Shown here: positions 1,474 to 10,772 of the stretch, in pieces
Layout of the letters: every line of letters starts with the position of its first letter
How positions within the stretch are numbered: the first letter of the stretch is position 1
Position numbers and translations under genes: made by a program
NCBI RefSeq assembly: GCF_044647545.1
Contig: NZ_CP172818.1
Direction: 5' to 3' (one strand)
DNA length: 64,000 bases
Source: Escherichia coli
GTDB taxonomy: Bacteria; Pseudomonadota; Gammaproteobacteria; Enterobacterales; Enterobacteriaceae
Notes under the pieces: generated by a model
Databases searched by the model: none
What the model saw: the letters and a program-made list of their open reading frames with translations, nothing else
Told to the model about the DNA's origin: nothing

Positions 1474-1571
1474 GCCTGATGCGCTACGCTTATCAGGCCT
1501 ACATCGCTCCTGCAATGTATTGATTTTGCAAGATTTTGTGGGTCGGATAAGGCGTTCACGCCACATCTGGC
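1474..1571. repeat. REP (repetitive extragenic palindromic) elements downstream of opgH
   Basis: Imperfect palindromes of the gcctgatgcg...cttatcaggc and ggataaggcgttcacgcc type, typical REP/BIME units. Confidence 0.7.
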
Positions 1572-9012: not shown

Positions 9013-9253
9013 CATGGCCCCCTAATTCGTGTTACTAGACAACGTTATTCGAGGTTCAATGCGTTTTTATCTGAAGCAACTTCAGTATACCAATAAGTAA
9101 GGGTATTCACCGAATTTTTAAAGGGGGGAACAGATAAATTTCTGCTTTTAAGATTTATATGAACAATAAAACAGCATGTCATTCATATTTTTTTAGCATA
9201 TTGTGCAATTATTTTGAGGAAGTGTAGAAATTTTGTACTCACAATTCGCAAGT

Positions 9254-9280
9254 AAAATAAAAAAGCCGGGGCGACCCGGC
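9254..9280 (-). terminator. Rho-independent terminator downstream of dinI
   Basis: Hairpin gccggg-gcga-cccggc followed on minus strand by T-run (plus-strand A-run 9256-9264). Confidence 0.65.
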
Positions 9281-9301
9281 AAAAACAAAAATCACTGCAT
9301 A

Positions 9302-9547
9302 TTATTCGCTGACAAACCAGTCATCGGCGCTTTCCCACGTTTCCTGGAGAATTTCGCTAATGCGCTGTTTATCTTCTTTTGTCGCGCCAATAACCGATAA
9401 ATTATTTGCTGCGGCATAACGTACCGATACGTGGCCTTCATTATCAGGAAACGCATACTGAATACGGCGGGAAAGTTCGCCAGCCAGGGCGTCAATAGCC
9501 CCAGCTGGCAATGGAGAAGTTTTCGCTATGGTGACTTCAATTCGCAT
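9302..9547 (-). CDS. dinI: DNA damage-inducible protein I (DinI)
   Basis: Track ORF 9302..9679 over-extended; ATG at 9547 (MRIEVTIAK...) 6 nt after GGGGG RBS; 81 aa. Confidence 0.93.
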   Translation of the reverse strand: MRIEVTIAKTSPLPAGAIDALAGELSRRIQYAFPDNEGHVSVRYAAANNLSVIGATKEDKQRISEILQETWESADDWFVSE

Positions 9548-9568
9548 AATAGCCCCCTGTTGAATATA

Positions 9569-9584
9569 CTGGTTATTTATACAG
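9569..9584 (-). promoter_or_regulatory. LexA operator (SOS box) of dinI
   Basis: Minus strand reads CTGTATAAATAACCAG (CTG-N10-CAG) about 22 nt upstream of dinI start. Confidence 0.85.
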
Positions 9585-9620
9585 GTAAAATAACCTAATG
9601 ACAACAGGAAGCTACGATTT

Positions 9621-10667
9621 TTATTGTTTAACGGACCAGCGTACCGTTTCCCCAGCGAGGAATGGCACCAGGGTGTCATCAGTCAGTGCGATGCTTTCAG
9701 CAACCTGTTGCTCTTCACGTACCAGTTCGATGAATGTGTCGTTGACCGGCAAGCCATAGAACTGCGGGCCGTTTACAGAACAGAATGCTTCAAAGTGCTG
9801 CAAAGCATTCATCTCTTCAAAGACGGTAGCGTAACTGCCCAGCGCGGTTGGGGCGTTGAAGCAGCCCGCGCAGCCGCAGCTGCTCTCTTTGCGATGACGT
9901 GCATGTGGCGCAGAATCCGTTCCGAGGAATACACGATTAAAACCGCTGGCGACCAGTTCACGCAATGCCTGTTGGTGGATATTGCGTTTGAGGATGGGTA
10001 GACAATACAGGTGCGGACGCACGCCACCAACCAGCATATGGTTGCGGTTAAACATCAGATGCTGCGGAGTGATGGTGGCAGCCAGCCGTTCATTTCCGTC
10101 ACGGACATAGTCGGCAGCATCTTTGGTGGTGATGTGCTCAAAAACGACTTTCAGCGCAGTCAGACGCTGGCGTAGCGGTTCCATCACGCTTTCTATAAAG
10201 CGCGCTTCACGATCAAAAATGTCGATATCTGCATGTGTCACTTCACCATGCACCAGTAGCGGCATACCGATTTTTTCCATGCGCTCTAATACCGGCATGA
10301 TTGCGTCAACTGACGTCACGCCGTGACTGGAGTTAGTGGTTGCGTTTGCCGGGTAAAGTTTTGCAGCGGTGAACACGCCTTCGTTAAATCCGCGCTCCAG
10401 CTCATTCGGATCCAGCGAATCTGTTAAATAACAGGTCATCAATGGGGTGAAATCGTGCCCGGCAGGTACGGCGTCAAGAATACGCTGGCGATACGCCACG
10501 GCAGCCTCAACGGTGGTCACGGGCGGAGCCAGATTGGGCATTACGATAGCCCGTCCATAAATTTCGCTGGTATACGGCACGACAGTTTTTAACATGTCGC
10601 CATCGCGGAGGTGAAGGTGCCAGTCGTCTGGGCGGCGGATCTTTAATACCTGGGATGGTGCAGTCAT
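9621..10667 (-). CDS. pyrC: Dihydroorotase PyrC
   Basis: 348-aa ORF, HxH metal-binding start (DWHLHLRDG); recognised as PyrC. Confidence 0.96.
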
Positions 10668-10772
10668 TAATCTCTATGCTCCGGCTGAAGGGATGTTTTT
10701 GCCGGACACAAAGGATAAGCGGAAACGTTTTCCTTTGCACGAAAAATAAAGGGCGCGAATGCGCCCTCGTGA

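Follow-up and report, generated by a model that had tools for sequence, protein, structure and literature searches.

Two genes follow each other in tandem on the minus strand in the 64-kb stretch of Escherichia coli DNA analysed here (hereafter the window), a layout that the first-pass annotation of this DNA had already described, with the strand left unstated, and that the list of open reading frames bears out. The upstream gene, pyrC (9621-10667), encodes a dihydroorotase of 348 amino acids and ends in a TAA stop codon at 9623-9621; the downstream gene, dinI (9302-9547), encodes 81 amino acids plus stop and begins with an ATG at 9547-9545. Between them lies a spacer of exactly the 73 bp that had been claimed (9548-9620), which holds the entire dinI promoter, operator and ribosome-binding site. 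The assignment of pyrC draws on Pfam PF01979 (Amidohydro_1, E 5e-21) and on the RefSeq annotation of a genome with 100% identity, while the dinI product scores 102.1 bits against Pfam PF06183 (E 2e-29; gathering cut-off 24.2), which places it in the DinI family, and matches PDB chain 1ghh_A over all 81 residues (E 1e-49). RefSeq likewise names the genes flanking the spacer pyrC and dinI. In E. coli FDAARGOS_497, which is 100% identical to a 501-bp query spanning 9200-9700, the gene order is grxB-yceB-pyrC-dinI-bssS-solA, and the pyrC-dinI spacer of MG1655 also measures 73 bp. The 501-bp query was found at a coverage of at least 80% in 5,413 of 5,426 complete E. coli genomes, and a shorter query across the junction (91 bp, 9540-9630) in 5,420 of them.

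Several further features of the region deserve mention. Five matches to the pyrC-dinI junction in the E. coli genome collection lie on records labelled as plasmids. One complete genome, of sequence type ST2747 (locus L083 4047-4048), carries a clean 516-bp deletion corresponding to window positions 9068-9583; its start coincides with the upstream boundary of the LexA 16-mer described below, and it takes the box, dinI and the dinI terminator, leaves pyrC about 92 bp from bssS, and has a junction without microhomology. The spacer contains no in-frame stop, and a 125-amino-acid open reading frame (9302-9679, minus strand) extends dinI upstream into pyrC; the 'DinI' entries of 102-125 amino acids in protein databases (P0002-P0005, P0009, P0014) are probably over-extended gene calls. 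Rfam matches at gathering score comprise the PyrC leader just upstream of pyrC (10668-10717, minus strand), the RNase E 5' UTR element (33106-33442, minus strand), SraB sRNA (35303-35471, plus strand) and ES036 sRNA (1495-1537, minus strand).

The spacer carries a LexA (SOS) box on the minus strand. Its 16-mer core, CTGTATAAATAACCAG (9569-9584), occurs once in the window; the full 20-mer, ACCTGTATAAATAACCAGTA (9567-9586), is assigned from a matrix scan, from the published dinI box and from orthologous boxes. The core lies 36 nt from the pyrC stop codon and 21 nt from the dinI ATG, in each case one nucleotide less than the roughly 37 and 22 nt given by the first-pass annotation, which had called it a canonical SOS box and had proposed two ways of checking this. 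The first, a LexA matrix scan, we carried out with a symmetrised weight matrix built from 17 other E. coli boxes (PMC3009722 Table 4) with dinI left out. On this leave-one-out matrix the dinI box reaches 21.2 bits, within the 13.8-28.5 bits spanned by the 17 published boxes, and its heterology index is 4.95, compared with a published value of 4.8 for the E. coli dinI box (PMC11228462 Table 1). The outcome named beforehand as refuting the motif, a score below threshold, did not occur. The second, comparison with the published dinI operator, yields identity: the 25-mer around the box is letter for letter the dinI entry, TTACCTGTATAAATAACCAGTATAT, of PMC3009722 Table 4. The site combines a palindromic CTG-N10-CAG core with a score in the range of bound boxes and with overlap of the promoter. 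Observation and interpretation were both correct, and the arrangement, as had also been stated, is already known. Relative to E. coli K-12 (PMC3009722 Table 4; PMC11228462 Table 1), the 25 nt, the gene, the pyrC neighbour and the 73-bp spacer are all the same, so that this non-K-12 strain shows no difference in the operator.

How specific is this match? The bare pattern CTG-N10-CAG occurs 27 times in the window against 13.3 expected, and is thus non-specific when taken alone, an excess that probably reflects the fact that CTG and CAG are common codons. Among these 27 matches, CTGTATAAATAACCAG is the only one that combines an A/T-rich centre with a high matrix score. The runner-up LexA site in the 64 kb scores 11.05 bits, 10 bits below the dinI box, and when the window was shuffled 300 times with dinucleotides preserved, the top score had a mean of 11.6 bits (sd 2.2) and a single shuffle reached 21 bits. 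The notion that the motif at dinI is a chance match without any role, to which the 27 pattern matches might lend some colour, is already refuted by matrix score, shuffles and the conservation of the box position in 80 species, quite apart from published LexA dependence, and we regard it as having practically no chance of being right. In Salmonella, a second LexA box (heterology index 17.6) has been described at a distance of 42 nt from the dinI ATG; the equivalent 20-mer in E. coli (9609-9590) scores -16.9 bits and was rejected as a second box.

Reading 5' to 3' along the minus strand, the pyrC stop codon is followed by TTGTCA, a 17-nt spacer, TATAAA, AGGGGG and the dinI ATG. From sequence reading and conservation we infer that TTGTCA (9599-9604) is the -35 hexamer and that TATAAA (9576-9581), which lies within the LexA 16-mer, is the -10 hexamer; together they match 10 of 12 positions of the sigma-70 consensus. 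The promoter was assigned by eye from sequence and is supported by conservation; an automated promoter scan, which demands a T at position 6 of the -10 hexamer, did not list it. The overlap of the box with the -10 hexamer, and the identity of the flanking genes by Pfam, PDB and RefSeq, agree with the earlier placement of the dinI promoter and operator inside the spacer. The Shine-Dalgarno sequence AGGGGG (9553-9558) stands 5 nt before the ATG, within a CAGGGGG that is nearly invariant in the alignment. A terminator scan reported no terminator-like site within the 73-bp spacer, and the first terminator downstream of the pyrC stop is that of dinI itself, an intrinsic terminator (9254-9280, minus strand) recovered both by the scan and by RNA folding, whose stem GCCGGGTCGCCCCGGC (9280-9265) is followed by a T-run.

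The published transcription start does not fit the hexamer pair. A genome-wide survey placed the dinI start at NC_000913.2 position 1120748, with a 38-nt leader, on the basis of 13 reads from uninduced cells (PMC3415461, supplementary file 2); mapped to the window, this is position 9585 on the minus strand. From the conserved -35/-10 pair we would expect a start at about 9568-9570, which corresponds to NC_000913.3 1121508-1121510 and lies some 16 nt further downstream. Both candidate starts fall inside the 20-mer LexA box, 9585 at its upstream edge. The 9585 start could represent a minor promoter or the processed 5' end of read-through RNA, and the promoter geometry under induction given here is provisional.

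With a probability of roughly 95%, we consider the site to be the SOS operator of E. coli dinI, where one LexA box over the -10 and start region represses the promoter. The single box (9586-9567) overlaps the -10 hexamer and the start region of the putative TTGTCA-17 nt-TATAAA promoter and, since it covers the -10 hexamer, bound LexA should exclude RNA polymerase; a LexA dimer on the box would thereby keep polymerase off the dinI promoter by steric exclusion, as the overlap suggests. Upon DNA damage, RecA-stimulated self-cleavage of LexA would free the promoter and allow strong dinI transcription. LexA dependence and induction are documented in the literature: in E. coli, AZT induces dinI 49-fold and the dependence on LexA cleavage is 39-fold (PMC11228462 Table 1); Salmonella dinI, with its box 19 nt from the ATG, is induced 22.8-fold (PMC8072944); and in K. 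pneumoniae the dinI box and the mapped start site overlap, and mitomycin C lowers the occupancy by LexA seen in ChIP (PMC10907235). The identical 16-mer CTGTATAAATAACCAG also forms the SOS box of the qnrD plasmid pDIJ09-518a, where, in front of a different gene and on a different replicon, it gives LexA/RecA-dependent induction (PMC8789287). Nothing that we found contradicts LexA control of dinI.

Conservation was assessed at 80 loci, one genome per species, from about 25 enterobacterial genera (81 loci including this window). A separate protein homologue search gave only relatives with at least 74% identity and added none from Klebsiella, Serratia or Yersinia. In every one of the 80 other species pyrC sits directly upstream of dinI on the same strand and a LexA box of 19.4-29.3 bits is present; the spacer measures 65-81 bp in 76 of them. 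Box and ATG are 19 nt apart in 66 of the 81 loci, the -10 hexamer reads TATAAA in 74, and TTGNNN lies exactly 17 nt upstream of it in 75. The E. coli box, at 21 bits, ranks near the low end of these 81.

Single-box SOS promoters are known in which the LexA box overlaps the -10 hexamer or the start site. Like dinI, other promoters of this class have one 20-bp palindromic box of low heterology index near the ATG, an arrangement that has been linked to strong LexA-dependent control (PMC8072944). What sets dinI apart from them is its tight position: all of its control elements follow closely upon a gene read in the same direction, from which no terminator separates them.

Having assigned the operator, we turn to an inverted repeat that brackets it. 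The 5' arm, GTAGCTTCCTGTTG (9602-9615, minus strand), singled out by RNA folding, duplex energy and conservation, starts 5 nt past the pyrC stop codon (9620-9616 intervening) and ends in the -35 hexamer. The 3' arm, CAACAGGGGGCTAT (9549-9562, minus strand), singled out by RNA folding, duplex energy and pairing probability, takes in the dinI Shine-Dalgarno sequence and stops one nucleotide short of the ATG. The predicted minimum-energy fold of the minus-strand RNA from 9660 to 9540 (-36.9 kcal/mol, z = -3.9) contains a 14-bp stem in which GUAGCUUCCUGUUG (9615-9602) pairs with CAACAGGGGGCUAU (9562-9549), with promoter and operator enclosed in their entirety. The arm duplex in the window is predicted at -21.1 kcal/mol, against -6.9 with a shuffled arm; over 75 distinct spacers its mean is -17.9 kcal/mol, whereas shuffling the 5' arm brings the mean to -7.5 and the antisense strand gives -16.4. 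In an analysis of 77 distinct spacers, with two lacking a recognisable G-run, the ribosome-binding G-run was predicted to pair with sequence upstream of the dinI start at a median probability of 0.999, compared with a ribosome-binding site predicted to be about 46% unpaired in the short dinI transcript. Crucially, the 5' arm lies upstream of both candidate dinI starts, so that only RNA reading through from pyrC would hold both arms.

The neighbourhood of the repeat varies in several lineages. A perfect 8-bp inverted repeat, GGTTATTT/AAATAACC (9571-9578 and 9588-9595, minus strand), has one arm inside the LexA box, within its right half, and the second directly before the box; it makes up the inner stem of the predicted fold and is specific to Escherichia, not being conserved elsewhere. 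Six Citrobacter loci (L005, L007, L008, L011, L012, L015) have 65-bp spacers from which 10 bp including TTGTCA have been lost; where the -35 hexamer would stand they read TAGCCA, and all that is left of the bracket is an outer stem of 6 bp, GUAGCC/GGCUAC. Two Buttiauxella loci (L062, L080) have an insert of about 126 nt in the dinI leader, between LexA box and ribosome-binding site, which presumably resembles an ERIC/IRU repeat, and two Trabulsiella loci (L033, L034) have a leader insert of about 43 nt. Both arms of the bracket are kept on either side of the inserts in the two genera.

What might such a repeat do? One scenario is that an RNA-level insulator is layered on the SOS operator. Imagine that pyrC has no terminator of its own, so that polymerase reads on into dinI. 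In the resulting RNA, 9615-9602 would pair with 9562-9549 and bury the dinI ribosome-binding site, whereas transcripts from the SOS promoter would lack the upstream arm and would be the sole source of DinI; untranslated dinI RNA could then end via Rho or at the dinI terminator. The pyrC-dinI spacer would, in this scenario, be a two-in-one device, with DinI synthesis confined to LexA-controlled transcripts whose start lies in the loop of the hairpin. We put this forward tentatively, judging it possible and somewhat more likely to be wrong than right.

A number of observations, most of them computed from sequence, speak for insulation. Apart from the terminator-free spacer in the window, only 4 of the 81 chromosomal loci have any terminator-like site in the 300 nt that precede the dinI ATG. 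The stability of the 14-bp stem, the excess of arm pairing over shuffled arms and the near-complete pairing predicted for the G-run all point the same way. Overall, 79.6% of cells are paired, and in the core, GCCCCCTGT/ACAGGGGGC, 84%, compared with 28-57% in slid controls, and the core is kept in most of the approximately 25 genera. Changes from C to U in the core preserve G-U pairs, and there are some double changes, GUAGC/GCUAU becoming GUGGC/GCCAU or AAUGC/GCAUU. Finally, the C-run of the 5' arm occupies a place ahead of the -35 hexamer at which one would expect an A/T-rich element.

Other observations weigh against insulation. The arms overlap the -35 hexamer and the ribosome-binding site, both of which are constrained for other reasons, and some Citrobacter and Escherichia arms contain 1-2 internal mismatches. 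RNAalifold returned no consensus stem from an alignment of 75 sequences, and no Rfam family was found at the repeat. Cells changed on both sides number 33, against 20.1 in shuffles (1 of 500), but covarying pairs are few: only three fall in the bracketing helix, all of them outer pairs in which about 45% of cells are unpaired (4 of 20 covary among all pairs). Swapping flanks has a small effect (-5.0 versus -4.1 kcal/mol), and support from covariation is modest throughout, be the test column-based, covariance-model-based or by flank swap. True compensation in the core is not visible because the ribosome-binding G-run never varies. Experimental evidence for RNA running from pyrC into dinI, or ending within the spacer, was also looked for and did not turn up. 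No pyrC-dinI transcript is given in the SMRT-Cappable-seq supplements, the only 3' end listed in the supplements of Adams 2021 lies inside pyrC (1122569), and a text search of the literature for 'pyrC-dinI' or 'dinI-pyrC' returned no paper.

A simpler explanation might be that the bracketing hairpin is the intrinsic terminator of pyrC, with the dinI promoter in its loop: the stem is G+C-rich, conserved and situated just past the pyrC stop, and pyrC is otherwise without a terminator. If this were so, we would expect a U-tract after the stem, but what follows is TATGCG or ATGCG, and the E. coli loop is about 39 nt long. Neither the terminator scan nor its re-implementation on the 81 loci called the hairpin, and we rejected it as an intrinsic terminator; a terminator role strikes us as improbable.

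The insulator scenario can be set against the dinI genes of viruses and prophages, of which we compiled 59 distinct promoters with a LexA box. Their DinI proteins are at most 56% identical to the one encoded here. In the dinI-antirepressor modules of prophages (Gifsy-1, -2 and -3; PMC3121763) and in viral copies the LexA box mostly lies about 19 nt from the ATG and, as on the chromosome, there is a TTGNNN -35 hexamer, theirs being 17 nt upstream of the box. Unlike in chromosomal loci, the -10 hexamer falls on the first half of the box (TACTGT). Their flanks pair weakly (mean -10.7 kcal/mol, mean z -0.7), with no strong bracket, yet a canonical terminator stands 100-170 nt upstream in 46 of the 59, in contrast to the near-absence of terminator-like sites at the chromosomal loci. 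For the Gifsy prophages, a terminator upstream of dinI has been noted by Lemire et al. (PMC3121763). This contrast is consistent with the bracket doing a terminator's work on the chromosome, but is no proof of it. In many prophage dinI promoters (L084-L169) the -35 hexamer is additionally preceded, at a distance of about 12-20 nt, by the motif GCAAAAAGTGC or AACAATTTGTGC, and CATTTC occurs just after that hexamer in promoters of the same set.

Anti-Shine-Dalgarno hairpins gate the translation of downstream cistrons in polycistronic mRNAs. The predicted fold at dinI resembles them in that a pyrimidine run pairs with a downstream ribosome-binding site, and differs from them in the location of its 5' arm, which falls beyond the end of pyrC and ahead of an internal promoter. 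Because of this placement, the predicted hairpin would discriminate between two classes of transcript rather than couple translation.

As regards the operator, our results bring no novelty: dinI ranks among the classical SOS genes, and the operator between it and pyrC has been known for a long time and appears routinely in lists. The value of the case is that of a positive control, in which a reading of the sequence alone recovers a real operator with near-exact coordinates. The bracketing repeat, on the other hand, is a modest lead, suggested by predicted folds and their conservation. If true, insulation would show what makes tight repression of a RecA regulator possible only 73 bp downstream of a constitutive biosynthetic gene, without an intervening terminator. 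A further consequence would be that a promoter can lie in the loop of an RNA hairpin that tells read-through transcripts from promoter-specific ones, and that the dinI copies of prophages meet the same problem with an ordinary upstream terminator.
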